A stretch of DNA of 64,000 bases from NCBI GenBank assembly GCA_963700065.1, contig CAVOWJ010000005.1, positions 620,953-684,952 on the forward strand, read 5' to 3'. The translations under genes were made by a program, and so were the position numbers. Of the stretch, positions 1,549-56,667 are shown one piece after another. The notes under the pieces were generated by a model, which worked only from the letters and a program-made list of their open reading frames with translations, was not told the DNA's origin and did not search any database. Position 1 is the stretch's first letter; each line of letters opens with the position of its first letter. The DNA is from an uncultured Acidobacteriota bacterium. Its GTDB lineage: Bacteria; Acidobacteriota; Vicinamibacteria; Vicinamibacterales; JAKQTR01.

Positions 1549-1653
1549 AGGGGCTAGGCGCTTGGCGCTAGTCAGGCAGCTTGTCACGCTGGTATGCAAC
1601 CCCTGCGGCGATAGCCGCATCAGACTAGTCCCTAGCGCCTGGCCCCTAGCGCC
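1549..1653. repeat. Imperfect inverted repeat with about 25-nt arms of CTAG-containing 7-mers around a ~45-nt loop, between convergent genes
   Basis: Left arm aggggctaggcgcttggcgctagtc pairs with the right arm gactagtccctagcgcctggcccct at 21 of 25 positions by hand. The loop holds a gcggc-gata-gccgc mini-hairpin (1605-1618), also seen at 54532-54545. Confidence 0.7.
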
Positions 1654-2711
1654 TACTTGATCGGAAAGTAGATATTCGTCAGGATCTCCGGCTCCTTCAC
1701 CGTGGTCGGATCGTTGGCGAACTCGTCCCAGGGCCTGCCGTTGGTCGCGATGCCGTGCGCGGCGATGTAGGCGACGATCTTCTCGTAGGTCGACGGGATC
1801 TGGCTGTACGGCCCGCGCAGCGCCACCTTCAGCGCCTTGCCTCCGTAGGTCTGCTTCATCTGCACGCGCGAGTCGGGCGGAACCGGCCTCGCGGGCACGC
1901 TGTCCACCGGGATGGCCGCGTCGAACAGATGGCCCGACGCGCTCTCGCCGCTGTCGATCGTGATGGGCGCGCCGGCCTGCTGCAGCCGGTTCGCCTTCAT
2001 GAACGCTCCCACTTCGCCGTAGGCGGCGGTGATGGCGGCGGCGATCGCCGTGTCGTTCTTCGCGCTCGACGTCGGGACGTAAGCCACCGTGACCGGCTGG
2101 ACCGTCACCGTCTCGACCGGGAGCCCGGCGAAATCGCCCCTGGGCAGCCCCTCGGCGAACGTCTTCAGCTTCTCGAGGCCCTTGTCGAAGTCCTTGCCGA
2201 TCATCCCGTCGAATCCGAGGCCCATGTAGCGCGCGATCGGGTTCATCCCCAGGTCTACGTCCATGCTCCAGGTGAGCTTCGTGCCGGACCCGTCCGCTGC
2301 CAGCGTGTACACCTGTTTCGCCGGGGTTCCGCCCTGGCCGAAGTCCACGTCGGCCTCGATGCGGCCGTACGGCGTGCTCGCGGTGATGGCCTGGTACCCG
2401 GAGCCGAGCGTCTGCGGGTTCCCGGCCCAGGTCAGCTTCGCTCCCACGCCCACCGCGGGGCCCTCGGAGGTGTACTTCGCCTCGGGATCCAGCTCGAACC
2501 AGGGTGACCACCGGTTGAACTGCGTGAAACTGTCGAGGATCGTGAACACCGTCGACCGGGACGCCGCGATCGTGGCCGAGCGCTCCACCCGCACGTGGCG
2601 CGGCAGCATGAACGCCGCCGCGATCGCGATGACGAGCAGCACGCCGACAAACAGCATGATCCGCCTGACCCAGCCCATGGCATCCTCCAAGGCGGCCAGC
2701 CGCGCCGCCAT
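1653..2711 (-). CDS. Membrane-anchored SRPBCC (START/polyketide-cyclase-like) protein with a GyrI-like ligand-binding C-terminal half
   Basis: 352-aa ORF. N-terminal TM helix IMLFVGVLLVIAIAAAFML. The SRPBCC-like block RSATIAASRSTVFTILDSFTQFNRWSPW and the C-terminal half resemble effector-binding domains. Recognised by eye only. Confidence 0.6.
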   Translation of the reverse strand: MAARLAALEDAMGWVRRIMLFVGVLLVIAIAAAFMLPRHVRVERSATIAASRSTVFTILDSFTQFNRWSPWFELDPEAKYTSEGPAVGVGAKLTWAGNPQTLGSGYQAITASTPYGRIEADVDFGQGGTPAKQVYTLAADGSGTKLTWSMDVDLGMNPIARYMGLGFDGMIGKDFDKGLEKLKTFAEGLPRGDFAGLPVETVTVQPVTVAYVPTSSAKNDTAIAAAITAAYGEVGAFMKANRLQQAGAPITIDSGESASGHLFDAAIPVDSVPARPVPPDSRVQMKQTYGGKALKVALRGPYSQIPSTYEKIVAYIAAHGIATNGRPWDEFANDPTTVKEPEILTNIYFPIK

Positions 2712-2759
2712 TCCCTGAGCCTACCTCGGTTCCCCCACCCGCCAAAGGGGGACTGTCCC

Positions 2760-4050
2760 CTAGAAACTGTACCGGAGGCTGATGGTGACGTGGGAGTTCC
2801 GGTCGTAGCGGCCGAAGAAATCCTCAGGGGTGCCCGCGATGATCGTGGCGCGGGCGGTGAAGCGGAGATGCTGGCCCGACGCCTGTGAATACTCGAACCG
2901 GAGCCACGTGCCGTCGAGGTTCTGGCGGACGGCGCCTTCGAACGCCGCGCTGCGATTGGTGTCGATCGTGTAGGACACGCGGCCGAGGAAGGCCTTCGTC
3001 AGCCCGCGGTCGGGCGCGAAGGATGCCTGGACGCGCGAGGTGGTGACGACCTCGCCGGAGTAGCCGCCGATGAACATCCACTCGCCGGACTGGCGCTCGA
3101 CCTGGATGACGTAGAGCCAGGTACTGGTCGGCGCGCGAGTCGCTGGTCCCGAAAAACGCCGCCTCTCCCTTCAGCGTCACCGCCGGCAGCGGCACCGCCG
3201 CGTCGCCGCCGGCCATCCACATGGTCGGGTAGACGCGGGTGATGGGGACCTGAAGCCCGGAGGGCACGGCGTTCGCGGCGAGCGATGCCGCGGGCGGGAC
3301 CGGAATGCCCCCCGGCAGTTGCGGGGTGCCGGCCTCGATGATCGGCAGGTTGTTGTTGCCGCTGAAGGCGGACACCGAGAATTCGTAGCCCGATCCGACG
3401 TGGTTCCAGCGTGCGCCCAGCTGCGTGCGGCCCGGGTAATCCGCCCCTTCGTCGACGAGCGTCACGTTCTCCAGCTCGGCCGCCAGGCCGGCCCACCGCT
3501 GATCGAGCAGGGGCGTCCTGCTCGGGGTGAAGCGGGCCGCGACGAGATCGAGCGTGTCGGCCTGAAGCCCGGCCGTGAACCGCGCCGCCGTGACGCCGAG
3601 GAACTCGCTGTCGACAACGGCCAGGTAGTCGCGCGGCGCGAAGCGGTCGGTCGGGTTGAGGATGTCGGTCTTGCCCCACCGGACGAACTGCTTCCCGGCC
3701 TGGAGGCTGAGCGGGCCCCGGGTGAGCGTCGCGTCGAGGCGCCTGACGGCCAGCCCGGGCCGCCTCGCCGACCGGTCGCTCCAGCTGATGCCGTCCCATT
3801 CCGTCTGATCGTGTGTGTCGGCGCGAGCGTCGATGCCGCCGTTCAGCCACAGCCACGCGGCCGGCTTCGCCGCCGCCTCGTATCGCAGCAGCGCCTCCCC
3901 GACGACCTGCGTGTCGTCATTCGCCGTCGTCTGCGGATAGCCGATGCCCTTCGCCTCGATGAAGCCCTTCTGGGTGAATGCTTGCGCATGCGCGTACAGG
4001 GGCAGAAGCGCCAAGAGCGCCGCGAGCGGCAACGGCAGAGCCAGCCGCAT
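2760..4050 (-). pseudogene. Outer-membrane beta-barrel protein with its frame broken by one extra base near 3120 (pseudogene or assembly indel)
   Basis: Signal peptide MRLALPLPLAALLALLPLYAHAQA starts at ATG 4050. The body is in track ORF 2824..4398 and the last 105 aa are in track ORF 2760..3077, ending ISLRYSF (terminal Phe). Length is 1291 nt = 3n+1. Dropping one C of tacCtgg joins ...SRADQY to WLYVIQVERQSGEW. Confidence 0.65.
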
Positions 4051-4107
4051 TCGACCCGGCGCCACGTCGCGCTGCAAACCGCTCGGCGCGCCGGAGGGGC
4101 CCCGCTT

Positions 4108-4347
4108 TCGACTTAGCAAACGGCGCCCAATGCTAAGTCGAGTGAAAACGCGCCAGCGGCGCGTTTTCCGCGGGGGACGCATCTCCGGGGTGCTGTCGGC
4201 GGAAGCGCGGGGCCCCGCTGCGCCTCCGCGGGAAACGCCACACCGTGGCGTTTCCATGCGCACTTGGCGACATCCCATGTCTCCAAGTGCGAAGCGGAGC
4301 CTCCCCCACGCGGACTTCGGCCCCTTCGATGCGTTTGTCACGCATTC
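4108..4347. other. Cluster of five hairpins in the intergenic region between the LolA-like gene and the OMP gene
   Basis: Stems: 4108-4118/4131-4141 (11 bp); 4144-4154/4158-4168 (11 bp, 3-nt loop); 4231-4241/4245-4255 (11 bp, 3-nt loop); 4259-4267/4283-4291 (9 bp); 4329-4334/4340-4345 (6 bp). The second and third share G(A/G)AAACGC...GCGTTT(T/C)C. Confidence 0.6.
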
Positions 4348-4395
4348 GTGATCGGCTTGCTCGCATGGTTTGCTGCGCGACGTGGCGCCGGGCCT

Positions 4396-4437
4396 CATTC
4401 TGTCTTCTGTCTTCTGTCTTCTGTCTGTCTACTGTCC
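4396..4437. repeat. Heptamer tandem array: TCTTCTG x3 plus degenerate units
   Basis: cattctg tcttctg tcttctg tcttctg tctgtct actgtcc. It overlaps the stop codon (4429-4431) of the LolA-like gene. Confidence 0.8.
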
Positions 4438-5187
4438 CCGTCTGAGCGCCTGCAGCGTGAAGTTCTCGTCCTTCATCGGCACGTTGTACTCGAGCTTGTC
4501 GAAGGTCAGGATCGTGCGGCTGTTGCGCTTGAGGTCGGCCATCTCGAGCACCCGCGCGGTCCAGATTCCCTGCACGTTGTCGATCTTCGAGTACTTCAGC
4601 CGCCGGACCACGACGTCCTTGACGTAGTTCTCGATGCGCTGGAACGCGTAGTTGTCCTTGCGCACCCACACGATGGACGACGTGTACTGGGAGGACTTCC
4701 CTTTCCGCGGGCGCGACTCGACCTTCCAGCACGCGGCCCCGTCGACGTTCTCCTCGGCGAGCATCGAGTAGTCGTACTGCCCGGTGTCGCGCTCCTCGAG
4801 ATCCTCAAAGCTGAAGTCGGTGCCGAAGAAGCGCGTGGAGCGGTCCTGCAGCGCGATGCGGCGCTCGCGCTGGATCGCCGGCGTCCACATCCACTGGTCG
4901 GACGCGCGGTCGGGATAGTTGACTACCAGCAGCGCCACGCCCTTCACCTCGGCCGGCTGAACGAACGTCAGCACGGACTTGCTCCGCCCGTGCGATCCTG
5001 TGCGGTCGTACACCCAGCGCTTATCGGAGATCTTCCCCTTCGAGTCGACGACCTGCAGAAGCCCCTCGTAGTGCTGCGACGTCGCCTCCGTGCGGCGCTG
5101 CGCTTCCTCCATCACCTGGCGCGCGTCCTGGGCGGCGGCGGGGCCGGCGGCCAGCACGAGCGCCAGAGCCGCCCTGATCAGGGGCAT
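4429..5187 (-). CDS. LolA-like outer-membrane lipoprotein-sorting family protein
   Basis: Start moved to ATG 5187, giving signal peptide MPLIRAALALVLAAGPAAAQDA. FFGTDFSFEDLEERD and the overall pattern match the LolA-like/DUF1329-type family commonly next to MacB-like permeases. Confidence 0.75.
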   Translation of the reverse strand: MPLIRAALALVLAAGPAAAQDARQVMEEAQRRTEATSQHYEGLLQVVDSKGKISDKRWVYDRTGSHGRSKSVLTFVQPAEVKGVALLVVNYPDRASDQWMWTPAIQRERRIALQDRSTRFFGTDFSFEDLEERDTGQYDYSMLAEENVDGAACWKVESRPRKGKSSQYTSSIVWVRKDNYAFQRIENYVKDVVVRRLKYSKIDNVQGIWTARVLEMADLKRNSRTILTFDKLEYNVPMKDENFTLQALRRGQ

Positions 5188-5246
5188 GGGACATGGGGCA
5201 GGGGGCAACAAGACAGGGGCATGGGGCAAGGGACAAGGGGCGGGGA
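5181..5246. repeat. G-rich heptamer array (GGGGCAT/GGGGCAA/GGGACAA units); left arm flanking the four-helix-bundle gene
   Basis: ggggcat gggacat ggggcag ggggcaa caagaca ggggcat ggggcaa gggacaa ggggcgg. This is the reverse-complement unit family of the 5693-5820 array. Confidence 0.85.
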
Positions 5247-5282
5247 AGCAAGAACGTTCACGACGCATACAACTGCTCCTAG

Positions 5283-5687
5283 TCACTGGGCACTCTGAGC
5301 ACGAGACTCGGAGTCGGCCGCTGCACGATTCCCCAGCGCCGACCGCAATCCGTGAAGAACCCTTCCCACGTCAGCTGCTGCATCAAGCAGCCTGACGGCG
5401 TCTTCCACCTGACCCATCCCAAGACGCCTCGCCAGTTCGATCTGAGTCTCCAACTCGGCCTGGGAGCCCATTGCGATGGCCACGAAGCTCGCGTATGCCG
5501 CTCTCGACCGGCGGTTGTGACCCTCCGCAACGTTCGACGGAATCGACACGGCCGACTTCCGAATGTGCGCCGCAAGTCCGAACATCTCCGACTTCGGGAA
5601 GCTCTCTGTGAATCTGTAACACCCCTCGGCCAGCTGCATGGCGAGCTTCCATGCGTCGAGATCGCGGTAGCACCGGATTGGCGTCAT
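5283..5687 (-). CDS. Four-helix-bundle protein (23S rRNA intervening-sequence protein family)
   Basis: 134 aa. YRDLDAWKLAMQLAEGCYRFTESFPKSEMFGLAAHIRKSAVSIPSNVAEGHNRRS is the characteristic signature of this family. Confidence 0.85.
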   Translation of the reverse strand: MTPIRCYRDLDAWKLAMQLAEGCYRFTESFPKSEMFGLAAHIRKSAVSIPSNVAEGHNRRSRAAYASFVAIAMGSQAELETQIELARRLGMGQVEDAVRLLDAAADVGRVLHGLRSALGNRAAADSESRAQSAQ

Positions 5688-5692
5688 TCATT

Positions 5693-5820
5693 CCCCCATG
5701 CCCCATGCCCCATGCCCCATGCCCCTTGTCCCTTGCCCCTAGCCCCCTTGTCCCCTTGCCCCTTGTCCCCTTGCCCCTTGCCCCTTGTCCCTTGCCCCTT
5801 GTCCCTTGCCCCTTGCCCCT
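5693..5820. repeat. C-rich heptamer array of about 18 units (CCCCATG/CCCCTTG/TCCCTTG); right arm flanking the four-helix-bundle gene
   Basis: 128 nt with strict 7-nt period from just after the gene start (5687) to the permease stop codon (5819-5821). It is G4-type (G3-4 N3)n on the transcribed minus strand. Confidence 0.9.
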
Positions 5821-8372
5821 ACTCGTACTCGAGCGCCTCCACAAGCGACCCCCGCACCGCCGACTCCGCCGGCCAGAGCGCGGCCACGAACGCCGCCCCG
5901 AGGATCAGCGGCACGAGCAGGGCGGCAATCGACCAGGGGAACTGGTACGGCAGCGCCATGCCGGTGATGTCGCGCTGGCTCAACTCGAGCACGTAGTGCA
6001 GCGTCACCGACCCGACGGCGAATCCCATCACCAGCCCGACCACTCCAATCGTGAGCGCCTCCATCCAGATCGTGTGGCGGATCTGGTTGCGCAGGCCGCC
6101 GACGGCCTGCAGCACGCCCAGTTCGCGCCGGCGATCGATGATCGACACGGTGAGCGTGTTCACGATCCCCAGGATCGCCACGAGCACGGCAATCGCGATC
6201 TGCGCATAGGCCAGGCCCAGCCACTGCTCGGTCAGGGCCGAGATCCAGGACCGCACTTCCTTGTTCGTCAGCACGAACAGGCGCTGCGTGCCGGCGAACC
6301 GCTCGATGATCCGCTGCCGGACGTCCATCGGCGGCACGCCTTCCTTCACGTAGATCCGGAAGACGTTCACGGTGTCATCGCCCCACCACCGGACGTAGCT
6401 CGCCCGGTCCATGAGGATCGAGCCCGACTGATCCGACCAGTCGACGACCAGGCCGACGATGGGGACCTTGTGCACGCCGGTCGGCGTGGCCAGATCCATC
6501 ACGTCGCCGTAGTGAAGGTCCTGCAGCCGCGCGAAGTTGTCCGACAGGATTACGCCCTTGCCCTGTGCCGCCATCTCGTACATCTCGGGCGGGCCTTCCA
6601 CCGGCGGCCGCCTGGCCCGGTCTCCCATCGACTTCGCCTCGACCGCCACGATCATGACGGGCGTGCCCTTGTACATCGTCCGGTGGCTGCGCACGCGCTG
6701 AAGCTCCTCGACCCCCTCGATCCGCGCCAGTTCGTCGCCGATCGCGGGCGGGAACCTGAAGTTCCGCTCGGTCAGGCTTTGCGACGCGGTCACGAACAGG
6801 TCCGGGTTCAGCGCCGTCGTGGTCCACTCCATGATCGAGTCGTAGCTGGCCTTTGCGATGCCGCCCAGCGTGACGACGAGCGCGAGCGACAGCATGAGCG
6901 CCGTCACCGTGGCCGAGGTGCGGCGCGGCGCCTGGATGAGACTGTCGGCCGCCAGCGCCCCTTCGACCGGCCGGAGCCATCGCAGGGCCGGGCGCATGGC
7001 CCGCGTGAGCCACAGCGCCCCCGTGGGGCTGAGGAGCAGGAGCGCCACAACCGCCATCGCGAACCCGGCGTAGAAGAGCGCCATCGATCGGGCCGCGAAC
7101 ACGAGCAGTGCGATCGAAAACGCGCCCAGGAGGATGGCCGCCAGACGGCGCATCCGGTTCTCGCCAGCCGACAGCACCTGGTACCGGCCTTTTTGCAGCG
7201 CCTGGATCGGATCGACCCGCGACGCGTTGCGCGCGGGGATGAACCCCGCGAGCACGCTGGTCACGACGCCCATCAGCAGGCCGAACAGCATCAGGCGGGG
7301 CTCGGTCGCGATTTCGGTCGTCCGCTCGGCGATGCCGTAGACCCCGGCAATCAACCCCGAGATGTAGAGCGCCAGGCCGCGAGACAGCAGCACGCCGAAC
7401 CCGAGGCCCAGCGTGGACCCCACCAGCCCCGACAGGCCGCTCTCGACGAGGAAGAGCGTCCGGATCTGACGGCGCGAGGCGCCCAGCGCGCGCAGGATCC
7501 CGATCTCGCGCCGCCGCTGCGCCACGGCGATCGAGAACGAGTTGTAGATGATGAACATCCCGATGAACAGCGCGAACGCGCTGTTGATGTTCGCCGTGAA
7601 GGAGTACACGCGCAGCACCGAGTCGATCTGCTGGCCGCGCGACGAGGGCGGCTCCACCTCGAAGCCGGGCCCCAGGAGGCCCTCGAATGGCCGCGCGGCC
7701 GTCGGCCACCGGCACACCCTCGTTCAGGGCCAGGTCGATCCGGTCGAACGTCCGGCCCCGCCCGAACACCATCTGGGCCGCGTAGATGTCCATCACTGCG
7801 AGGTTGCCGCCGAACGCCTGCGTCAGGCCGCCCGACTTCATGATCCCGCGCACCGTGAACTGCTTCTCGCCGTCCATGGTGCGCATCGGCACCTTCGTGC
7901 CAATCGCGATGCCGTTCCGCTCGGCGAACTCGCGCGTCACGATCAGCGAGTCGGGCTGCGCCAGGAACACCAGCGGGTCGTCGATGACCGCCTCGTCTCC
8001 GGTCTCGAGGTCGTAGTCGCGCAGCGAGCGGTCGCCGGTCATGTCCACGGCCAGGATCAGCAGGTTGCCCTCGCCCGCCAGGTTCGTGTCGACCGGCGCC
8101 TCGATGACCGGCACGGCGACCTTCACCTGCGGCATCGCCTGCACGCGCTCGAGCACGTCCTCCGGGAATCCCCCCTCGCCGGCGGTGATCTGCAGCTCCG
8201 CCTTCCCCGCGATGCGGTCGATCGTCTTGTAGAAGGCGAACAGCACCGACTGGTTGGCCGTGTGCATGCCGACGAAGACGGCTACGCCGAGCACGATCCC
8301 GACCGTCGTCAGGATCGTGCGCAGGCGGTGCCGGCGCACGTAGGGCCAGGTGATGAGGCGCAGCAGCATCAT
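5819..8372 (-). pseudogene. MacB/FtsX-type ABC transporter permease (about 850 aa, two FtsX domains) with its frame broken by one extra base near 7686
   Basis: The N-terminal part MMLLRLITWPYVRRHRLRTILT...RIDLALNEGV is in track ORF 6375..8711. The remainder, LLGPGFEVEPPSSRGQQIDSVLRVYSF...EALEYE, is in track ORF 5819..7717. Length is 2554 nt = 3n+1. Removing one T of gccatTcgag gives ...GRAAIEGLLGPGFEV. Confidence 0.8.
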
Positions 8373-9043
8373 CGCCGTTCGTCTCCGACGATCCGGCCGT
8401 CGCGCAGGGTGATGGTGCGGGCGCAGCTCGCGGCCACGTGGCGGTCGTGCGTCACGATGAGGACCGTCGCCTTCAGGCGATCGTGGAGGTCCCGGATGAG
8501 CGCGAGGATCTCCTCGCCGGTGGCCGAGTCGAGGTTGCCCGTCGGCTCGTCGGCGAGCAGGATCGGCGGGTAGATGGCCAGCGCGCGCGCGATCGCCACG
8601 CGCTGGCGCTCGCCGCCCGACAGCTCGTCCGGCAGGTGCTCGATGCGCTTGCCGAGCTGGACCAGGTCGAGCAGCTCGCGGGCACGGTCGCCGGCCTTCC
8701 TGCGGGCCCACCCGCGCAGGTGCAGCGGCAGCGCGACGTTCTCGAGGCAGCTCAGCGTGGGCAGCAGGTTGAAGAACTGGAAGATGAACCCGACCTTGTC
8801 CCGCCGCACCCTCGTCAGCGCATCGTCCCCGAGGCCGTCCAGGCGCTGGCCGTCCACCCCGATCCAGCCAGAGGTCGGGTGATCGAGCGCGCCGATCAGA
8901 TTGAGCAGGGTCGACTTGCCGGAGCCGGATGCGCCGACAATCGAGACCATCTCGCCGCGTTCGACGGAGAGGCTGACGTGGTCGAGGGCGGTGACGGTGC
9001 GCTTGCCGTCGAAGGTCTTGGTGACGTCAGACAGAGTGATCAT
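8369..9043 (-). CDS. ABC transporter ATP-binding protein (LolD/MacB-type)
   Basis: Start set at MITLSDVTKTF. Walker A GASGSGKST, signature LSGGERQRVAIARAL, Walker B ILLADEPTGNLD. Its stop overlaps the permease start (ATGA at 8369-8372). Confidence 0.9.
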   Translation of the reverse strand: MITLSDVTKTFDGKRTVTALDHVSLSVERGEMVSIVGASGSGKSTLLNLIGALDHPTSGWIGVDGQRLDGLGDDALTRVRRDKVGFIFQFFNLLPTLSCLENVALPLHLRGWARRKAGDRARELLDLVQLGKRIEHLPDELSGGERQRVAIARALAIYPPILLADEPTGNLDSATGEEILALIRDLHDRLKATVLIVTHDRHVAASCARTITLRDGRIVGDERR

Positions 9044-9111
9044 GCCGCGTCTATCGTGACACGCCGGGCGGCGGGGCGTCGAGGCGGCGCGGCGCCGGCG
9101 CGCGCGGCCTC

Positions 9112-10677
9112 GTGTATTCTTCCCGCATGCAGCGGCCCGGACCGGACCAGCCCCGTTCTCTGCCGGCGACCTGGGTTGTCGCCTGCTGGCTCGTACCACT
9201 TGCCACGCTGGCTCTCCAGCTCGCCACCTACCGCGGGTATGGCTTCTTCAGAGACGAGCTTTACTACCTCGCGTCCGCCGAGCATCTCGGATTCGGGTAC
9301 GTCGAGCATCCTCCCCTGATTGGATTCATCGCGTGGCTGGTGCGGTCCATGCTCGGGGATTCGCTGTTTGCCGCGCGGCTGCTGCCGGCTGTCGCCCACG
9401 CGGTTACCGTCGGCCTTGCGGCGCGTCTGGCGTGCGAGATGGGTGGCGCGCGCTACGCGCAGTTCGCGGCCGCACTGGCGACGGCGCTCGCGCCCGCGTA
9501 TCTCGGCATCTGCGGCGTGCTTTCGATGAACGCCTTCGACATCCTGTTCTGGGCCGCCCTCTGGCTCATCGTCGCGCGGGCGCTGCGCACCGGCGACCCG
9601 CGGCTCTGGCTGCTCTTCGGGATGGTCGCCGCCGCAGGCCTCCAGAATAAGATCAGCGTGCTGTTCCTGGCTTTCGGGGTCGTGGCCGGCCTTGTGGCGG
9701 CCCGGCGATGGCGGGTGTTCCGGTCCTGGCACATCTGGGCGGGAGGCGCGGCCGCGTGCCTCATCTTCCTGCCTCACATCTTCTGGCAGTGGCACCACGG
9801 CTGGCCGACCCTGGAGTTCATGGCGAACGCCACCCGCGAGAAGAACGTCTCGCTGCCGGCAGCGGCGTTCGTGACCGAGCAGGTCATGCAGATGGGCGCG
9901 CTCGCGGCGCCGCTGTGGATCGCCGGGCTGGGCGGATTGCTGGCCCGGGAGCGGTTCCGGCCCTTCCGTCCGATCGGCTGGGCCTACCTGGCCGTGCTGG
10001 CGGTGATGCTCGCGGCCAATGCCAAGCCGTACTACCTGGCCCCCGCATATTCGGCGCTGTTCGCGGCGGGAGCCGTCGGGTTCGAGGCGATCCGGCGGTC
10101 AACGGCCGGAACCGTGGTCCGCGCCCTCATGGTGCTGCTGGTGGGCATCAGCGGCGCCGTGTCCCTTCCTTTCGCGAAACCCGTGCGTTCGACCGATGCG
10201 TTCCTGCGCTACTCGGCGGCCCTGGGGATCGGGCCGCACAGCGAGGAGCGGCAGGAGCTGGGGCGGCTTCCGCAGCAGTACGCCGATATGCATGGATGGC
10301 AGGAACTGGCGTTGAACCTGGCGACGGTGTACCACGCCTTGCCGCCGGCGGATCGCGAGCGGGCCTGCATCTTCGTCCAGAACTACGGGGAGGCCGGCGC
10401 GGTGGATGTCCTCGGCGCGCCGCTCGGCCTGCCTCGGGCCATCTCGGGCCACAACAGCTACTTCCTCTGGGGCCCGCGCGGCTGCGCCGGCGAGGTCGTC
10501 ATCGCGCTCGGCGGCGAACGGAAGGACTACGAGGACGCATTCGCGTCGGTTGAGCGGGCGGCTGTCCACACGTGCACCGATTGCATGCCGTACGAGGACA
10601 ATCGCCCCATCTGGGTGGCCCGCGGCGCTCGAGTGCCCATGGCCGCAATCTGGCCCCGCGTGAAGCGGTTCATCTGA
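9112..10677 (+). CDS. Polytopic glycosyltransferase, ArnT/PMT-like (GT39/GT83-type)
   Basis: 521-aa multi-TM ORF. The N-terminal loop YGFFRDELYYLASAEHLGFGYVEHPPL resembles the acidic loop-1 motif of this family. Confidence 0.7.
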   Translation: MYSSRMQRPGPDQPRSLPATWVVACWLVPLATLALQLATYRGYGFFRDELYYLASAEHLGFGYVEHPPLIGFIAWLVRSMLGDSLFAARLLPAVAHAVTVGLAARLACEMGGARYAQFAAALATALAPAYLGICGVLSMNAFDILFWAALWLIVARALRTGDPRLWLLFGMVAAAGLQNKISVLFLAFGVVAGLVAARRWRVFRSWHIWAGGAAACLIFLPHIFWQWHHGWPTLEFMANATREKNVSLPAAAFVTEQVMQMGALAAPLWIAGLGGLLARERFRPFRPIGWAYLAVLAVMLAANAKPYYLAPAYSALFAAGAVGFEAIRRSTAGTVVRALMVLLVGISGAVSLPFAKPVRSTDAFLRYSAALGIGPHSEERQELGRLPQQYADMHGWQELALNLATVYHALPPADRERACIFVQNYGEAGAVDVLGAPLGLPRAISGHNSYFLWGPRGCAGEVVIALGGERKDYEDAFASVERAAVHTCTDCMPYEDNRPIWVARGARVPMAAIWPRVKRFI

Positions 10678-10704
10678 CGCCCGTCGCATGACGCGGCCGG
10701 GCCG

Positions 10705-11154
10705 GTGAAGAGCGCGGCGTATAATGCCGTCGTGGCCTCTGCCGACTGCCGCTCCGTCGTGGCCGCCCTCGAGGCGTTCTTCGCGCATCCTCCTGCCGGG
10801 ACGGCCGCCGGGTACCTTTTCGGCAGCGCGGCGCGGGGTGATGCCCGGCCGGACAGCGACCTCGACGTGGCCATCCTCTTCGAGCAGGACCCTCCGCGCA
10901 CGCTCGAAGGGCTCCACGTCGAAATCGCCGATGAGCTGCAACGTAGAATCGGCAGGCGTATCGATCTCGTCGTCCTCAACCGGGCGCCGGCCGACCTCGT
11001 GCATCGGGTGCTGCGCGACGGCATTCTGGTGTGTGATCGAAACGGGTCCGCCCGCATCCGTTTCGAGGTCCGACTCCGTAACGAGTACTTCGACATGGAA
11101 CCCGTCAGGCGCCTGTACCGCAGGCGGGTGCCGCAGGGGGTTGCCGCGCCATGA
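10705..11154 (+). CDS. mntA: MNT-type nucleotidyltransferase antitoxin
   Basis: LFGSAARGDARPDSDLDVAILF (GS-X-RG...DxD nucleotidyltransferase motif). ATGA overlap with the downstream HepT gene. Confidence 0.8.
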   Translation: MKSAAYNAVVASADCRSVVAALEAFFAHPPAGTAAGYLFGSAARGDARPDSDLDVAILFEQDPPRTLEGLHVEIADELQRRIGRRIDLVVLNRAPADLVHRVLRDGILVCDRNGSARIRFEVRLRNEYFDMEPVRRLYRRRVPQGVAAP

Positions 11155-11558
11155 CCGATCTGCCGCTCGTCGAAAAGCGCCTCGCGGTCATCGACACCTG
11201 CGTGTCGGATCTCCGCGCGCTGGCACGCCCTGATCGCCTGGACACCGACATCCGCGAACGCCGCTTCGTCGAGCGCACGCTGCAGGTCGCCATCCAGGCC
11301 GCCCTGGACGTGGCTTCTCACATCGTCTCCGAGCGGCGGTTGGGCGAGCCGGCGACGAATCGCGAGTTGTTCACCCTCCTGGAACGCGACGGTTGGGTTT
11401 CCTCCGAGCTCCGCGCACGGCTTGCCGACATGGCGGGATTTCGCAACGTGATCGTTCACGGCTACGACGACGTGGATCTGGATGTCGTGCGCGATGTCCT
11501 GAAGAATCACCTGGTGGATCTCGAACGCTTCACCGCCGGTGTCCGGCAGAAACTCTGA
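11151..11558 (+). CDS. hepT: HepT/DUF86 HEPN-domain toxin
   Basis: C-terminal RNVIVHGY matches the R-X4-H-X-Y HEPN motif. Paired with the MNT gene. Confidence 0.8.
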   Translation: MTDLPLVEKRLAVIDTCVSDLRALARPDRLDTDIRERRFVERTLQVAIQAALDVASHIVSERRLGEPATNRELFTLLERDGWVSSELRARLADMAGFRNVIVHGYDDVDLDVVRDVLKNHLVDLERFTAGVRQKL

Positions 11559-11598
11559 CACGAGAGGAGTTCCCCGGACCTGCAGGAGCCCTGACGCT

Positions 11599-12555
11599 AT
11601 GTCCGCAGACACGCCACGCGCCGAGAAGGTCGCGCGCCCGGCCGTTCCGGAACTCGACGCCATCCTGGGCGACGCGATCCGCGTCCTCGACGACGGGTTC
11701 GTGCGCGTCGTCGATTACATGGGCGACGACTCGGCGATCGTGCAGGCCGCGCGCACGTCGTACGGCAAGGGCACCAAGCGCCGGCACGAGGACCGCGGCC
11801 TCATCCGCTACCTGATGCGGCACGCCCACACGACCCCGTTCGAGATGTGCGAGATCAAGCTGCACGTGCGCGTGCCGATGGACGTGTGGCGGCAGTGGAT
11901 CCGCCATCGCACCGCGAGCGTGAACGAGTACTCCACCCGCTATTCCGAAGCGATTGACGCGGCGCAGCGGACCTCTCCCGGGGCGTGGCGGCTGCAGTCC
12001 ACAGGCAACCGCCAGGGCAGCAGCGGGCTGCTGCCGCCGGACGAGGGCAAGCGCCTCTCCGACGAGGAAGCCGCGCTGCAGCGACAGGTGCGGGACGTGT
12101 ACGAGGCGCGGCTGGCGGCCGGCGTCGCCCGCGAGCAGGCTCGCAAGGAGCTGCCGCTGTCGACCTATACCGAGGCCTACTGGAAGATCGACCTCCAGAA
12201 CCTGCTGCACTTCCTCGAACTGCGCATGGACGAGCACGCGCAGCTGGAGATCCGCGAGTACGCGAACGTCATCGGCGAACAGATCGTGGCGAAGTGGGTG
12301 CCGATGACCTGGGAAGCGTTTCTCGACTACCGGCGAGGCGCGACGCGGTTGTCGCGCATCGAGAGCACCATTCTGGAGGCGCTGGCCGCCGGCGACCGCG
12401 ACCGCGCGCTCGCGCTCGCGGACGAAGGCGGCTTCCTGAGCCGCGGCGAGGACGGGCGGCCCAGGCCGAACCTCGAAGGTCGAGAAGTCGAAGAGAAACT
12501 GGCGCGCGTCGGCCTCGAAGCGCCCTGGGCGGACGTCCACGAACCCGGGGTCTGA
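11599..12555 (+). CDS. thyX: FAD-dependent thymidylate synthase ThyX
   Basis: ThyX motif RHRTASVNEYSTRYS. Start moved to ATG 11599 (MSADTPRAEK...). Confidence 0.9.
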   Translation: MSADTPRAEKVARPAVPELDAILGDAIRVLDDGFVRVVDYMGDDSAIVQAARTSYGKGTKRRHEDRGLIRYLMRHAHTTPFEMCEIKLHVRVPMDVWRQWIRHRTASVNEYSTRYSEAIDAAQRTSPGAWRLQSTGNRQGSSGLLPPDEGKRLSDEEAALQRQVRDVYEARLAAGVAREQARKELPLSTYTEAYWKIDLQNLLHFLELRMDEHAQLEIREYANVIGEQIVAKWVPMTWEAFLDYRRGATRLSRIESTILEALAAGDRDRALALADEGGFLSRGEDGRPRPNLEGREVEEKLARVGLEAPWADVHEPGV

Positions 12556-12565
12556 AGACCCCGGG
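12544..12565. terminator. Hairpin cccggggtc-tgaa-gaccccggg; copy 1 of a 3-copy element
   Basis: 9-bp perfect stem with the thyX stop codon in the loop. It lies between convergent thyX and the small glutaredoxin-like gene. Confidence 0.5.
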
Positions 12566-12880: not shown

Positions 12881-12896
12881 CAGTCGCTCCTTGTTC

Positions 12897-46153: not shown

Positions 46154-46202
46154 GGGATTGGGGATTCGCGGCACGGGACTCGGGACTCGGGACTCGGGAC
46201 TC
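46154..46202. repeat. Heptamer array (GGGATTG, GGGATTC, then GGGACTC x4)
   Basis: gggattg gggattc gcggcac gggactc x4, followed by the hairpin gtcgaggc-ttca-gcctcgac (46220-46239). Confidence 0.85.
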
Positions 46203-46262
46203 GGCTGGTTCGGATGGAGGTCGAGGCTTCAGCCTCGACGGACAGGCGAGAGGACACGAGTC

Positions 46263-53026: not shown

Positions 53027-53032
53027 TCAGGG

Positions 53033-54482
53033 GCTAGTACGACTTTGTTGAATCACGTCGCGGATTTCCGAGGGAATTCGCACGCGGCGAAGTGATCACT
53101 ATTGAGGACATGTACTTTTCGATCGTGGTTTGGTACGCTGCCTCGCGATGGCGGCGGTGGACTCGCCCGCGTGGCTTGCGCGTCTGACGACGTGGCTCGA
53201 GGAGTTCGAGCCGGTCTTCGGGCACCGCGCGCAACGCGGTGGTCTGCGTCGCTACGTCGAAGGGGTCTTGTGCGACAGTCGCCGCAAGTCGATGGCGGCG
53301 ATGTGGGCGCGGTTGCGCGATCCGGGCACCTATCAGGGCCTGCAGTACTTCATCACCGAGGCGACGTGGCCGGCCGACGCCTTGTGGCGGCACCTGCGTG
53401 CCACGATCCCCGCGCGATCGGGGGTGCTGGTACTCGACGGCACCGGCTTTCCCAAGCAGGGGACCGCGTCGGTCGGCGTGCAACGCCAGTACCTCGGGCA
53501 CGCTGGGCAAGATCGGCAATTGCCAAGTGGCCGTCACGGCGGCGCTGTGGACGGGCGTGCAGGCGTGGCTGGTCGGCGCGCAGCTGTATCTGCCGGAGGG
53601 GTGGCTCACGCCGGCGCAGCGGGACCGTGGTCGGATTCCGGCGCGCGTCCGTTTCCAGGAGAAGTGGCGCCAGGCGCTGACGCTGCTGCAGCAGGTCCGG
53701 GCCTCGGGGATCGCCGTGACCGCGGTCGCCGCCGATGCCGAATTCGGCGATTGCACGGCGTTTCGGCACGCGTTGCACCAACTCCGGCTCGCGTACGCCG
53801 TGGGCATCTCGTCGACCCTGACGGTCTTCCTCGGCATCCCCGCGCTTACACCAGGATCCCGGCGCAGTGGCCCCCGCGGCGGCCGCCCGGTGATCCGTCC
53901 GCGTCTGCCGGTGGACGTGCGCCCACAGGCGGTTCGCGCGGTGGCCGCGGCCGCGCCCGCCCGCGCGTGGCGGGTGATCCGCTGGCGCAATGGCACGCAC
54001 CGGCCGTGGTGCGCCCGCTTCTGGCGGTGCCGCGTGACGCCCGCGCACGACTGGCGCCGTCACCGTCTTGCGCCGGACGTGTGGCTCTTGTGCCAACGCG
54101 ACGTCGACGGCACGGGCGACATCAAGTACTTCCTGGTGAATCTGCCGGCGACGGCCTCGTGGCAGGCGGTGGTGCACCTCGCGCATCAGCGCTGGGCCAT
54201 CGAGCAGCAGTACGCCGAGCTGAAGTCCGAACTCGGCCTCGACGACTTTGTCGGCCGGTCGTTTCCGGGGTGGAACCGCCACGTGGCCCTCACAGCCGTG
54301 GCCTACGCCTTCTTGCAGGTCGAGCGACAACGCCATGGCACGTCCCGGCTGACCTTTCCACGGGCGCGCGCGGTGATGACCGATATCCTGACCGCCTACT
54401 ACTTCGTGACGCATCAGCGCAAACTCAAGATGCTGTTAAAACTGGCGGAAATCCCGCTCAGAATCTAACAAAGTCGTACTAG
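53033..54482 (+). mobile_element. IS701-family insertion sequence (1.44 kb) flanked by CTAG
   Basis: TACGACTTTGTT (53037-53048) and its reverse complement AACAAAGTCGTA (54467-54478). CTAG at 53033-53036 and 54479-54482. It is inserted in the left arm of a CTAG-type heptamer hairpin element. Confidence 0.8.
53148..54468 (+). pseudogene. IS701-family DDE transposase with its frame broken by one extra base near 53492-53498
   Basis: The N-terminus MAAVDSPAWLARLTTWLEEF...GVQRQY is in one frame. GTLGKIGNCQVAVTAALW...QRWAIEQQYAELKSELGLDDF is in the +1 frame. Length is 1321 nt = 3n+1. Confidence 0.8.
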
Positions 54483-54580
54483 GGACTAGGCGCTAGGGGC
54501 TAGTCAGTCTCGCAGTTGAACTGCCACCCACGCGGCGACAGCCGCGTCGGACGAGCGCCTAGCGCCCAGCCCCTAGCCCC
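54483..54580. repeat. Hairpin element with CTAG-type heptamer arms; its left arm continues at 53027-53036 before the IS
   Basis: Left ggactaggcgctaggggctagtcag and right cgcctagcgcccagcccctagcccc. The loop shares ccacgcggcgacagccgcgtcgga with the loop of the 1549-1653 element. Confidence 0.75.
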
Positions 54581-56632
54581 TTACTTCGCCCAGCGCCCGA
54601 CCCACTCCAGAAACGTCCGGTACCAGAGCGCCGCGTTCTGGGGCTTGCCAATCCAGTGCCCCTCGTCGGGGAACACCAGCAGGCGCGACGGGATGCCCTG
54701 GCGCTGGAGTGTCGTGAAGAGCTGGAGCCCCTCGCCCACGGGCACGCGGAAGTCGAGCTCGCCGTGCGTGACGAGCGTGGGCGTCTTGAAGTTCTTCGCG
54801 TAGGTGTGTGGCGACCACTTCGCGTAGCCCTCGGGATTGGTCCAGGGCGTGCCGCCGAGATCCCACTCGGGGAACCACAGCTCCTCGGTGGCGCCGTACA
54901 TGCTCGTCAGGTTGAACACGCCGGCGTGCGAGACCAGCGCCTTGAAGCGGTCGGTGTGGCCGAGGAACCAGTTCATCATGTAGCCGCCGTACAACGCGCC
55001 GGCCGCCACCTTCCGTGACGCGTCGACATAGGGCAGCTTTTCGGCGTAGTCCACGCCCTTCATCAGGTCGTCGAACGGCTTGCCGCCCCAGTCGTTGCTG
55101 ATCTCGTCGGTGAACTTCTGGCCGAAGCCCGTCGAGCCCCGGAAGTTGACCATGAAGACGACGTAGCCCGCCGATGCGAAGACCTGGGCGTTCCAGCGGT
55201 ACGTCCATCCGTCGTTCCACGCGCCCTGCGGGCCGCCGTGCACGAGGTACAGGAGCGGGTACTTCACGCCGTCCTTGAACGTGTTCGGCTTCACGACCCA
55301 TGCCTGGACCGGCACCCCGCCCGCTCCCGCGAAGGTCACGCTCTCGGCCGGCTTGAGTGCGAACGTCGCGAGGAACTCCCGGTTGATCGTGGTGACGGCG
55401 GTCACGCCCGTCCCGTCGGCATTCGCGCGGTAGATCTCGGCCGGTGCCGTCAGCGACGCCTGGGAGAAGATGATGGTCTTGCCGTCGGGCGTCACCTGCA
55501 CGTCGCCGTTTGTCGCGTCCTTCAGCACCAGCCTGGGCGGTCCGCCGGCCAGATCGAACCGGTAGACGCGCACCCGGCCGTCTTCTTCGGCGGCCGTGTA
55601 GACCGCCTTCGAGTCCGGCGTGAACGTCCAGCCGTCCACGGCGCGGTCCCAGTCGGCCGTCAGCACGCGCCGCTCCCCTGATCTGCGATCGAGCAGGTTC
55701 AGCGTCCAGCGATCGGCCTCGAAGCCGGCCCGCGCCTGCGAACGCCACGCGAGGTACTTCCCGTCCGGCGTGTAGTGCGGGCCGCCGTCGGCGCCCAGCG
55801 CCGTCGTGATCTGCTTCGGCTGCGCGCCAGCCACGGTCAGGTCGATCGTGAAGATGTCGCTGTTCGTGCTGATGGCTTCGACCTTGTCGGTCTTCTTCGC
55901 GAACGCGATCTCCTTCGAGTCGGGCGAGAACGCATAGTCCTCGGGGCCGCCGAGCGAGAACGGCGGCACGTCGGACGTGCCCGGCGTCAGGTCGCGCGGC
56001 GGAGCCGAACCGTCGGCCGGCATCAGGAACAGGTGGCTGTAGGTGCCCTGCCGCCACGCGGTCCAGTGCCTGAACATCAGCCCGTCGGCCAGGTATGCCT
56101 TGACCTTCGATTCGTCGCGCGCCTTCAGCTCGCGCTCGTGGCAGGCTGCATCGGCACACGCCGGGAAGACCTCGGACACAAAAGCGATCCACTTTCCGTC
56201 GGGCGACCAACTGACGCCCGAGGCTTCCGTGGCGATGGAGGTGAGCTTCCTCGGCTCGCCCCCGGACGCGGGGATCACCCAGACCTGCGAGCCGCCGTCG
56301 CGGTTCGACACGAACGCCAGCTGCCTGCCGTCCGGAGACCAGCGCGGCCGATCTTCCGACCGATCCGTCCCCGCCACCTTGACCGGCGCGCCGCCTGCCA
56401 CCGGCACGATCCAGATGTCGTTGTTGCGCGTGTTACGGTCGAGGCTCACGTCCGTGACGACGAAAGCGATCTTCGTGCCGTCGGGCGAGAGCTGCGGGTC
56501 GGACACCCGCTTCAACTTCAGCATCTCGTCCACGGTGAACGCCGCCGGACCCTGCGCCCAGGCGGTGCTCGCGGCGAGCGTCAGCAATCCAAGAATCAGC
56601 GTCGTGTTGAGAATCAGCCTGCAGCGTGACAT
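54581..56632 (-). CDS. S9-family (prolyl oligopeptidase/DPP-like) protein with an N-terminal beta-propeller; nucleophile Ser replaced by Leu
   Basis: Signal peptide MSRCRLILNTTLILGLLTLAASTAWAQG. TolB-like repeats. The C-terminal hydrolase has GELDFRVP and DEGHW, but GALYGGYM appears where GxSxGG is expected (Leu codon TTG at 54992-54994). Confidence 0.8.
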   Translation of the reverse strand: MSRCRLILNTTLILGLLTLAASTAWAQGPAAFTVDEMLKLKRVSDPQLSPDGTKIAFVVTDVSLDRNTRNNDIWIVPVAGGAPVKVAGTDRSEDRPRWSPDGRQLAFVSNRDGGSQVWVIPASGGEPRKLTSIATEASGVSWSPDGKWIAFVSEVFPACADAACHERELKARDESKVKAYLADGLMFRHWTAWRQGTYSHLFLMPADGSAPPRDLTPGTSDVPPFSLGGPEDYAFSPDSKEIAFAKKTDKVEAISTNSDIFTIDLTVAGAQPKQITTALGADGGPHYTPDGKYLAWRSQARAGFEADRWTLNLLDRRSGERRVLTADWDRAVDGWTFTPDSKAVYTAAEEDGRVRVYRFDLAGGPPRLVLKDATNGDVQVTPDGKTIIFSQASLTAPAEIYRANADGTGVTAVTTINREFLATFALKPAESVTFAGAGGVPVQAWVVKPNTFKDGVKYPLLYLVHGGPQGAWNDGWTYRWNAQVFASAGYVVFMVNFRGSTGFGQKFTDEISNDWGGKPFDDLMKGVDYAEKLPYVDASRKVAAGALYGGYMMNWFLGHTDRFKALVSHAGVFNLTSMYGATEELWFPEWDLGGTPWTNPEGYAKWSPHTYAKNFKTPTLVTHGELDFRVPVGEGLQLFTTLQRQGIPSRLLVFPDEGHWIGKPQNAALWYRTFLEWVGRWAK

Positions 56633-56667
56633 CCCCTTGCCCCCTGTCCCTTGCCCCTTGCCCCTGT
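56633..56667. repeat. C-rich heptamer array (CCCCTTG family)
   Basis: ccccttg ccccctg tcccttg ccccttg cccctgt, between the divergent S9 and SNF2 genes. Confidence 0.85.

Follow-up and report, generated by a model that had tools for sequence, protein, structure and literature searches.

Heptamer arrays and an IVP cassette in the window

The genome of an uncultured bacterium of the Vicinamibacterales (Acidobacteriota) carries, in a 64-kb stretch that we refer to as the window (contig CAVOWJ010000005.1), dispersed tandem arrays of 7-nt units, and one inverted pair of these arrays encloses a gene of the 23S-rRNA-intervening-sequence-protein (IVP) family. The G+C content of the window is 0.67-0.73 throughout. 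Arrays were called with Tandem Repeats Finder (TRF), counts being restricted to arrays of at least three copies, the chance level was taken from 100 order-3 and 100 order-5 Markov shuffles of the window, and gene context was derived from Pfam scans and a codon-usage gene finder. We found 14 period-7 arrays, against shuffle means of 1.3 (order-3) and 1.1 (order-5) and a maximum of 4. Periods 5, 6, 8 and 9 gave 0-2 arrays each, which is the shuffle level, and the excess is thus genuine and restricted to period 7. An earlier note, made from the sequence of this stretch alone, had described recurring heptamer arrays, and TRF reports period 7 at nearly every locus that it named; the claim that several unit families are present was also borne out when units were read in 7-nt register. 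Its description of the periodicity as strict is overstated for four of them (1549-1653, 14706-14792, 36088-36190 and 54483-54580), which are inverted pairs of short arrays around an aperiodic core, and the arrays that it listed at 53027-53036 and at 15434-15449/16933-16991 are not separate entities but parts of arrays split by insertion sequences (IS). The strongest arrays are those at 5694-5820, 4398-4426 and 46174-46204 (both with 100% match), 13383-13413, 17532-17572, 19324-19356, 22232-22277 and 56633-56665.

One inverted pair has its arms at 5181-5246 and 5694-5820, and between them lies a minus-strand gene (5283-5687) encoding a four-helix-bundle IVP of 134 aa. The protein was identified by its matches to Pfam PF05635 (E 1.3e-30), TIGR02436 (E 2.2e-28) and PDB 2GSC (XCC0516 of Xanthomonas campestris; E 2e-26), and a weak match to NF033474 points to a distant relationship with Avd, a nucleic-acid-binding protein of diversity-generating retroelements (DGR). 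The 5′ (upstream) arm (5694-5820, minus) consists of 17.7 GGGGCAA, GGGACAA and GGGGCAT units on the IVP sense strand; it begins at the stop codon of an FtsX permease gene (TAG, 5819-5821) and ends 6 nt before the IVP ATG in GGGGGAA, a probable Shine-Dalgarno-like sequence. The 3′ (downstream) arm (5181-5246, minus) is C-rich on the same strand, with imperfect ATGCCCC and TTGCCCC units (TRF 5181-5241, 8.7 copies), and includes the start codon of a LolA-like gene, whose minus-strand ATG at 5187 sits in an ATGCCCC unit just as had been claimed. In the predicted fold of 5170-5830 (minus, 661 nt) the two arrays pair as a long closing stem (z -6.2). The cassette does not lie in 23S rRNA but between the FtsX permease and LolA-like genes, and Rfam finds no rRNA in the window. 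PADLOC returned no match for the IVP, so that assignment to a known defence system is unsupported.

Relatives were collected in two ways. Species-representative genomes scanned with the ThiI protein of the window (18137-19318, minus) gave 80 loci, nearly all labelled Acidobacteriota or Vicinamibacterales/Vicinamibacteria (a few bins are apparently mislabelled), with best protein matches of 90%, 84% and 77% identity; the IVP protein, used as query against metagenomes, matched 80 loci numbered L081-L160. In the latter set L081-L095 and L155 are orthologous to the window cassette at 72-95% DNA identity, and the longer contigs span the FtsX, IVP and LolA-like genes. Against five orthologues the IVP gene had a dN/dS of 0.04-0.11, indicative of purifying selection, with dS up to about 2.5; the dN/dS of 0.50 against the near-identical L081 is based on too few substitutions to judge. 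Despite this strong purifying selection, G+C at third codon positions is much lower in the IVP gene (0.72) than in host genes (about 0.88), and the gene was not called by the codon-usage gene finder, which is consistent with foreign origin or weak expression. The two arms vary together between orthologues: GGGGCAT/GGGACAT units occupy both arms in L081-L083, GGGGCAG both arms in L084 and L085, and GGGACGT/GGGGCGT both arms in L090, the exception being L087, in which GGGGTAA is found in the upstream arm only. Copy number changes quickly, the window and L081 having 17.7 versus 5.7 copies in one arm and 8.7 versus 11.7 in the other at 94-95% DNA identity and a dS of 0.04. AGAAGAC arrays lie downstream of IVP in L084-L086, in a position matching that of the 4398-4426 array of the window. 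The cassette is missing at the orthologous site of L001, a ThiI locus syntenic with window positions 2767-27982 at 80-88% DNA identity.

The four pairs with an aperiodic core of 30-55 nt are built on a smaller scale. Two are of the CTAGGGG/CTAGCGC type and lie between convergent genes. The pair at 1549-1653, between an AMP-binding gene (stop 1527) and a cyclase/GyrI-like gene (stop 1653), has arms at 1549-1571 (3.3 copies, TRF) and 1625-1653, a core hairpin GCGGCGATAGCCGC at 1605-1618 and a long predicted RNA stem on both strands (z -3.9 and -3.0). Its counterpart at 54487-54581 (TRF 54478-54503, 3.7 copies, and 54554-54581, 4.0 copies) stands between a HEAT-repeat gene and an S9 peptidase gene, with the hairpin GCGGCGACAGCCGC at 54532-54545 and predicted folds of z -5.0 and -5.2. 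The CAGTAGC-type pair at 14701-14792, with arms at 14701-14743 (6.1 copies) and 14774-14792 (2.7 copies) around a hairpin core, runs from the def stop (14788) to the start of an MFS gene and has a predicted fold of -50 kcal/mol (z -6.7); the CAGTAGC/CAGTAGT pair at 36088-36190 (TRF 36156-36188, 4.7 copies), also with a hairpin core, runs from a dihydrolipoamide dehydrogenase stop (36196) to an E2 acyltransferase start (predicted fold z -5.4). For single arrays such as that at 4390-4440 RNA structure prediction gave no fold. Homology between the elements at 1540-1660 and 54476-54592 extends to the core hairpin GCGGCGAYAGCCGC, and at least the CTAG type is thus a dispersed composite element; as GCGGCGAYAGCCGC was not found in any of the 80 related loci, this composite element is not a widely conserved unit. 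Rfam at gathering thresholds gave no match in the window, so the elements do not belong to a curated RNA family. A scan of 1-20000 for consensus terminators and promoters found 6 canonical hairpin-plus-T terminators where 7.2 were expected, and the cores of the inverted pairs are therefore not terminators of this kind.

Arrays flanking IVP genes in other lineages

The association of arrays with IVP genes was assessed in 61 IVP-homologue loci for which both flanks were available (G+C 0.34-0.69), an array being counted when it lay at most 150 nt from the IVP gene. Period-7 arrays were present on both sides at 22 of these loci (36%) and on one side only at 11, and arrays of period 7 or 8 occupied both sides at 28. 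Inverted-complementary flanks (score of at least 20) were found at 21 of the 61, and enclosure is seen at no fewer than 18 independent loci when the orthologous group is counted once. By comparison, arrays stood on both sides of 29 of 1184 ordinary Vicinamibacterales genes (2.4%), and 2 of the 1184 had inverted-complementary flanks; in an array-rich subset of these controls the corresponding figures were 21/211 and 1/211. Beyond the IVP flanks, the contigs that carry IVP genes held 35 period-7 arrays versus 2.0 expected (17-fold), and 12 period-8 arrays versus 1.4. The arm units are specific to each lineage, for example AGTTGTC/CAACTGA in L122, TAGTTTT/CTAAAAA in L150, TCGGCAG/CCGACTG in L120 and AGGGTAT/CTATACC in L137, and the conserved IVP motif stays constant while the flanking units differ completely between lineages. 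Judged from the flanking sequence of this metagenome contig, the cassette of L122 (about 2870-3480) apparently lies between clpP and clpX.

A tblastn search of 72,556 plasmids identified IVP homologues in 24 records, at least 21 of them cyanobacterial: 18 are from heterocystous genera (Nostoc, Calothrix, Anabaena, Aulosira and Fischerella) and three from the further cyanobacteria Stanieria, Geminocystis and Picosynechococcus, while the remainder include Pseudanabaena, Gemmatirosa and Azospirillum. The earlier note had likened the window arrays to the short tandemly repeated repetitive (STRR) sequences, the heptanucleotide repeats of heterocystous cyanobacteria catalogued since 1990. This likeness is right and now has a second side, in that the plasmid-borne IVP homologues are mostly those of Nostoc, Calothrix and Anabaena, and the Nostoc and Calothrix examples that were checked carry flanking heptamer arrays, mostly inverted. 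Upstream and downstream units are AGGGTGT and CTACACC in Calothrix NIES-22, AGTAGGG and TCCCTAC in Nostoc edaphicum, where the cassette lies between nrdB and nrdA, and GGGTGTG and ACACCCT in Nostoc punctiforme, all three being inverted; those of Nostoc PCC 7120 (ACTTCAA and CTTCTGC) are not complementary. On the Gemmatirosa plasmid the arrays have period 8 (GAGGGCAG and CTGCCCTC upstream, CTCCTGCC downstream) and are not clearly complementary across the gene, and on that of Pseudanabaena (galeata) AAAAGCT x15.6 upstream and AAAAGCC x14 downstream form a direct pair between cas6 and cas4.

The association does not extend to every array. In 1.46 Mb of Vicinamibacterales sequence with 198 arrays, a search with a hidden Markov model of IVP homologues did not turn up a second IVP gene, and the idea that each array family has an IVP gene nearby is accordingly rejected; arrays need none in their vicinity. 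Enclosure of a gene by a pair is likewise not exclusive to IVP, given that a NUDIX gene in the related locus L004 is flanked by inverted GCCCCAT/TGGGGCA arrays.

In the open literature we found no paper linking IVP genes with heptamer arrays in general terms, local heptamer repeats being mentioned only in the paper on the Coxiella 23S intervening sequence (IVS) discussed below. That IVP genes across phyla are enclosed by inverted heptamer arrays with co-varying arms seems not to have been described as a general rule. IVP genes inside cas operons have been noted without explanation (PMC3936711; PMC10910872), and this reported association may reflect IVS-like insertions rather than a CRISPR function.

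Placement, insertion and turnover of the arrays

Placement at gene boundaries had been regarded as constant. Intergenic placement is correct for the window with one exception, the arrays at 22233-22350, which lie in frame inside a squalene/phytoene-synthase gene (21605-22597, minus). The intergenic arrays stand between convergent genes at 1549-1653 and 53027-54581, between co-directional genes at 4398, the IVP cassette, 13383, 14701, 17532, 19324, 36088 and 46154, and between divergent genes at 15435-16991 and 56633. Several of them reach the adjoining codons. (GACAGAA)n at 4398-4426 (minus; TTCTGTC x4.1 on the plus strand, 100% match by TRF) fills the spacer from the LolA-like stop (4429) to the ATG of the next gene (4398), and the TAG stops of def and of the FtsX permease gene abut or overlap the first unit of their arrays, as had been proposed. 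The array (GGGATTC)5.9 at 17532-17572 (plus) is traversed by the NUDIX reading frame and forms its C-terminal tail, again in agreement with the earlier description; from the end of the array to the ATG of a lipoprotein-like gene there are 29 nt. Single arrays are also found between an MFS transporter stop (13499) and a thioesterase start, (GGGACTC)4.4 at 13383-13413; between an amine-oxidase stop (19391) and the ThiI ATG (19318), (GGGACTC/GGGATTC)4.7 at 19324-19356; and between an Smr-domain gene (stop 46149) and an M14 peptidase start (about 46263), where GGGATTG/GGGATTC units precede (GGGACTC)4.4 at 46154-46204 (plus; TRF 46174-46204, 100% match). Finally, (CCCCTTG)4.7 at 56633-56665 separates the divergent S9 peptidase and SNF2-helicase genes. 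Adjoining this last array, the SNF2/ResIII helicase gene is followed by a gene for an Eco57I/MmeI-type N6-methyltransferase of 1175 aa, and the two (56845-62762 together) may form a restriction-modification or other defence module.

The two intragenic arrays (22232-22349, minus), GGGGCAA/GGGGCCT x6.6 at 22232-22277 and GGGGCTC x2.6 at 22330-22349, encode a Pro/Ala/Ser-rich loop of about 36 residues, and the single Pfam SQS_PSY match of the synthase spans 295 residues for 259 profile positions. The HpnC-like synthase of L001 has a shorter array at that place (about 5700-5790) and a shifted reading frame, which may represent a real split gene or an error of long-read assembly.

Two of the window arrays are split by IS elements. 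An IS with a DUF772 and DDE_Tnp_1 transposase (transposase 15446-16846; element 15450-16932, minus) has inverted repeats CAGCCCGTGG(C/T)G and a CTAG target duplication (15446-15449 and 16933-16936), and is inserted in an array between the divergent def and NUDIX genes, of which there remain a left stub of (GGGGCTA)n at 15435-15449 (TRF 2.1 copies) and a right part of CTAGGGG/ATAGGCG units at 16933-16991 (TRF 16935-16979, called as period 14); the element is missing in L001, where the array is uninterrupted. The other (53037-54486, plus), with a DDE_5 transposase and inverted repeats TACGACTTTGTT, is likewise flanked by CTAG duplications (53033-53036 and 54487-54490) and leaves the stub TCAGGGGCTAG at 53027-53036. 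A relative of this second element in L001, upstream of ThiI (about 8631-9971), is also inserted at CTAG within an array and has a CTAG duplication. Three IS elements from two transposase families thus each lie at a CTAG of a CTAG-unit array, and such arrays look like preferred landing sites; as IS targets, CTAG units connect repeat content with genome plasticity.

Arrays of this kind also occur in related genomes. Across the window and the 80 ThiI loci (1.46 Mb) TRF reported 207 arrays of period 7, compared with 44, 48 and 70 for periods 6, 8 and 9, so that period 7 dominates lineage-wide. They are concentrated in the closest relatives, L004 holding 26 in 21 kb; at 12580-14000 of that locus nearly every spacer is filled by several heptamer families. 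Unit families are common to several genomes, and the units are very diverse and have no common consensus. After merging, 198 arrays remained, of which 193 could be classified by placement: 82% of these are outside genes, while about 82% of bases are coding. Convergent gene pairs had 0.32 arrays per spacer, co-directional pairs 0.21 and divergent pairs 0.11, the distance to a stop or start codon was 0-10 nt for many arrays, and the commonest size was 4 copies. Of 44 arrays in convergent spacers, 32 present the G-rich strand as sense to the nearer gene and 12 the C-rich strand. Partners were sought within 1.5 kb at an alignment score of 14 or more: 49 of the 198 arrays, about a quarter, have an inverted one and 18 a direct one, and most partners are separated by 20-110 bp.

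Comparison of eight array sites between the window and L001 revealed that occupancy persists while the unit family often changes. Arrays are present in L001 at seven of the eight, and the eighth, upstream of ThiI, has the IS described above inside a CTAG-type array. The family is clearly kept only at the def/MFS site. It has changed after the FtsX stop, between the LolA-like gene and the next gene, upstream of ThiI, in the NUDIX tail and between the MFS and thioesterase genes, and in the def/NUDIX spacer and the synthase interior arrays are present in L001 with units at least partly different from those of the window. The GACAGAA array at 4398-4426, for example, is replaced by a CAGTAGC inverted pair, and the arrays at 13383-13413 and 17532-17572 by a CTAGCGC-type element. 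CTAG-type arrays occur upstream of ThiI in L001, L002 and L004, the latter two of which also have arrays around def. Nearly identical elements of ~32 nt are found at three L001 sites, and identical imperfect orders of units recur at different sites. In the def/MFS spacer the CAGTAGC arms of the window and L001 are almost identical and their cores unrelated (14744-14773, 27 nt, versus about 12890-12931 in L001, 39 nt), which looks as if the core had been exchanged between conserved arms. What persists between genomes is thus the position in a spacer and not the unit sequence, and a persistent position combined with fast change of copy number and unit fits slippage and exchange between arrays, both of which we infer. 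Arrays occupy orthologous sites in many independent short-read and long-read assemblies, and assembly artefact, which the earlier note had named as a possible undoing of its observation, was rejected on these grounds.

One further difference between the window and L001 was noted. A segment of ~2.5 kb (9089-11620) is missing from the otherwise syntenic L001; it carries a PMT_2 glycosyltransferase gene and a nucleotidyltransferase/HepT-like gene pair (10705-11154 and 11151-11558) that looks like an MNT-HEPN toxin-antitoxin module.

Relation to known repeats and likely role

With their head-to-tail 7-nt units, dispersed excess, bias towards spacers and variation between relatives, the window arrays are the Vicinamibacterales counterpart of the heptameric simple-sequence repeats of cyanobacteria (STRR) and Xanthomonas, a known class in a new taxon, for which to our knowledge there is no agreed function or mechanism. 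STRR sequences, like the arrays described here, are short 7-nt arrays of several families per genome at many dispersed intergenic loci, and they enclose IVP genes on Nostoc and Calothrix plasmids; they differ in that the window comes from an acidobacterial genome of about 70% G+C and has GGGGCAA, GGGACTC, CTAGGGG, CAGTAGC and GACAGAA as units. In Nostoc PCC 7120, GGGGA(C/T)T arrays have been described (Rehm et al. 2015, PMC4692102). The statement that no equivalent was known from a high-GC genome did not stand: the same paper describes GGGAATC arrays in Xanthomonas, and heptamer repeats are on record for Burkholderia, Actinobacteria and Geobacter metallireducens, the last having GGGACCG x4 elements (PMC2700814). 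According to a survey as cited in MacGregor (2015, PMC4679880), heptanucleotides are the most abundant long simple-sequence repeats in bacteria including Burkholderia, Actinobacteria and Xanthomonas. The GGGAATC arrays of X. campestris and X. axonopodis are 89-93% intergenic, lie near the end of the upstream gene and seldom between divergent genes, form convergent inverted pairs in 70 of 186 cases, have a mode of four units and are mostly transcribed, and related species occupy the same spacers with arrays of different length and sequence (PMC4692102). The window shares with them a G+C-rich genome, the intergenic bias, inverted pairs, the four-unit mode and spacer occupancy, but it has at least five families, two of them unable to form quadruplexes, where Xanthomonas has one dominant G-rich family. 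Repeat number 15 of the Xanthomonas catalogue overlaps the start codon of the IVP homologue XCC0516 (PMC4692102, supplement), a link on which the paper does not remark.

Two other systems are relevant to a possible role of the arrays in RNA. TAACTGA repeats, for which a post-transcriptional role has been proposed, occur in marine Beggiatoaceae, some cyanobacteria and some Bacteroidetes (PMC4679880); they resemble the window arrays in being heptamer arrays, of 2-6 copies, that occupy spacers and the sequence immediately before start codons, and differ in having one A/T-rich, stop-codon-containing unit that is mostly direct, with one inverted set reported. In the 23S IVS of Coxiella burnetii an S23p frame is closed by a 28-bp stem that is cut by RNase III (Warrier et al. 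2016, PMC4990558), and 2-3 strain-variable heptamers (GACAGAT and GACAGAA) stand just before the ATG, the 5′ RNase III cut falling at the first of them (PMC4990558). The unit of the 4398-4426 array of the window, GACAGAA, is the same as this pre-S23p heptamer, possibly by coincidence. Like the 23S IVS of Coxiella and Leptospira, the window cassette is an IVP-family frame closed by complementary termini, with the stem being predicted in our case. Unlike them it lies between protein-coding genes and not in helix 45 of 23S rRNA, its stem consists wholly of heptamer arrays (about 9 and 18 units), and its IVP gene is under purifying selection whereas that of Coxiella is decaying. The repetitive extragenic palindromic (REP) sequences and bacterial interspersed mosaic elements (BIME) of enterobacteria and pseudomonads are also short dispersed intergenic hairpins that favour 3′ ends and convergent spacers and avoid divergent promoters, but REPs are single imperfect palindromes of ~35 bp tied to REP-associated tyrosine transposases (RAYT), whereas the window elements are built of tandem heptamers, and no Y1/RAYT transposase was detected among the genes of the 64-kb window scanned against Pfam. 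CRISPR-like arrays were rejected, spacers being absent and the period 7, as were footprints of repeated 7-bp target duplications, which would yield direct flanks where those observed are inverted.

We consider it likely, with a probability of roughly 60%, that the arrays are slippage-driven heptamer repeats of transcribed spacers whose inverted pairs act as RNA processing or stabilising stems. Arrays would fill transcribed spacers right up to stop and start codons, slipped-strand mispairing would expand and contract them, as their copy-number variation and placement suggest, and a few unit families would recur at many sites, probably through recombination between arrays or copying from one to another. 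The arms of an inverted pair would join in a long stem of up to about 60 bp, closing either a small hairpin core, to give an element of ~100 nt, or a whole gene, as in the IVP cassette (5181-5820), and such pairs would most likely serve, at the RNA level, as double-stranded structures for processing or stabilisation that keep adjacent cistrons apart. The stem model draws on the predicted folds, the co-variation of the arms, the architecture of the IVP cassette and the Coxiella precedent, and the role in RNA on analogy with the 23S IVS, in which an IVP frame is closed by an RNase III-cut stem. Single arrays would be by-products or half-sites of the slippage process with incidental effects, in that they supply genes with start or stop codons, purine runs resembling Shine-Dalgarno sequences or peptide tails, and IS with CTAG targets; any benefit to the cell is presumed, as is slippage itself. 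Several points weigh against this explanation. Roughly 65-75% of arrays have no inverted partner and are not covered by the stem model, and in co-directional spacers the sense strand is C-rich in 49 cases and G-rich in 41, which is near random. Arm co-variation could stem from gene conversion between the arms and not from selection for pairing, and persistence of an array at a site could merely mirror a spacer long enough to tolerate one. Some Nostoc cassettes have ~40-60 nt of A/T-rich sequence between the upstream arm and the ATG, and an internal promoter there, if present, would leave the mRNA with one arm only. Transcription through both arms and cleavage by RNase III are themselves presumed.

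The same slippage could be entirely neutral, if replication is most prone to slip on units of 7 nt, with arrays tolerated in spacers and with inverted pairs and codon overlaps arising incidentally. The diversity of units without a common consensus, the rapid turnover of copy number and unit family, the depletion in coding sequence and the near-random orientation relative to transcription are all as expected on this account, and the survey cited in PMC4679880 is there credited with attributing the heptamer excess to polymerase slippage. We nevertheless regard a purely neutral origin as unlikely: an array is retained in the same spacers by genomes with 72-90% ThiI protein identity, even where the unit has been replaced, inverted partners outnumber direct ones 49 to 18, the G-rich strand is sense for the nearer gene in 32 of 44 convergent cases, arms co-vary, IVP genes are specifically enclosed, and identical imperfect unit orders recur at different sites, as does a homologous core in two elements. 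That last recurrence, together with the nearly identical elements at three L001 sites, the inverted arms and the core replaced between conserved arms at the def/MFS site, would also be expected of miniature transposable elements mobilised in trans, with arrays as terminal inverted repeats and single arrays as excision footprints. Such elements are distinctly improbable here, as no flanking target-site duplication was seen, the arms are of freely varying length, orthologous sites retain their arrays, the genes scanned against Pfam included neither a Y1/RAYT nor any other candidate transposase, and both window IS have unrelated inverted repeats of their own and were inserted into arrays. The IVP cassette, although missing in L001, occupies one orthologous site in L081-L095 and L155 and so looks inherited, not recently mobile.

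Two further explanations were considered. The earlier note had the G-rich families satisfying G-quadruplex rules, and this is true of some, a G3 run per unit in at least four units being present at 5694-5820, 22232-22277, 46174-46204, 17532-17572 and 19324-19356; it is not general, since the CAGTAGC and GACAGAA arrays cannot form quadruplexes. G-quadruplex or i-motif elements modulating transcription or translation of the adjacent gene would accord with the G3-4 runs of nine window arrays, with a commonest copy number of 4 as in Xanthomonas and Nostoc, and with the folding of such oligonucleotides into quadruplexes in vitro (PMC4692102). However, a G3 or C3 run occurs in only 45% of the units of the lineage, versus 34% of random heptamers at this G+C content, the CAGTAGC and GACAGAA families stand at equivalent sites, G-rich and C-rich strands would be transcribed about equally, the duplex of inverted pairs would compete, and the 4-copy peak may partly result from the detection threshold of 3 copies just below it, all of which leaves this role very improbable. 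Alternatively, the arrays could be binding sites for a protein that reads a 7-nt register in single-stranded RNA or DNA, such as an IVP pentamer or a cold-shock-type OB-fold protein, and constitute a post-transcriptional regulon. The association of IVP with arrays across phyla and elsewhere on IVP contigs (35 versus 2.0 expected), the purifying selection on IVP, its distant relationship to Avd and the binding of heptamer repeats by CspB, one protein per unit according to the account reviewed in PMC4679880, are compatible with such sites, which we hold to be improbable: unit families that are unrelated, at least five of them, coexist in one genome, the 198 arrays in 1.46 Mb come with a single IVP gene, and the conserved IVP motif does not change when the flanking units do.

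More speculatively, heptamer arrays (with some octamers) and IVP genes could be the halves of one ancient and widespread system, in which IVS-like cassettes would be autonomous, IVP-less arrays and short pairs non-autonomous, and the IVP would bind, protect, process or propagate the RNA or DNA of the arrays. A cassette of this kind might insert into operon spacers (FtsX/LolA-like, apparently clpP/clpX, nrdB/nrdA and cas6/cas4) or into 23S rRNA, a suggestion that we likewise put forward only tentatively. Arrays on both sides of 36% of IVP loci versus 2.4% of ordinary genes, the 17-fold enrichment elsewhere on IVP contigs and the near confinement of plasmid-borne IVP to STRR-rich cyanobacteria are all compatible with a single system; against it, the related loci surveyed have more than 100 arrays for every IVP gene, and the unit families are many, so that we think it possible but not likely. 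If true, repeats of the STRR type would gain a dedicated protein partner.

Beyond what had been described before, the window contains arrays with inverted-pair architecture, two IS elements that split arrays and an IVP gene enclosed by a pair, and Acidobacteriota (Vicinamibacterales), a major soil phylum, is added to the carriers of heptamer arrays. Enclosure of IVP provides a concrete and testable handle on the function of heptamer arrays, the architecture being that of the RNase III-excised 23S IVS. If the pairs are RNase III substrates, lineages without canonical terminators would have in them a general means of dividing operon transcripts into separate cistrons, and the genes for "four helix bundle proteins" found in operons, cas operons included, would be IVS-like insertions and not components of the operons in which they lie.

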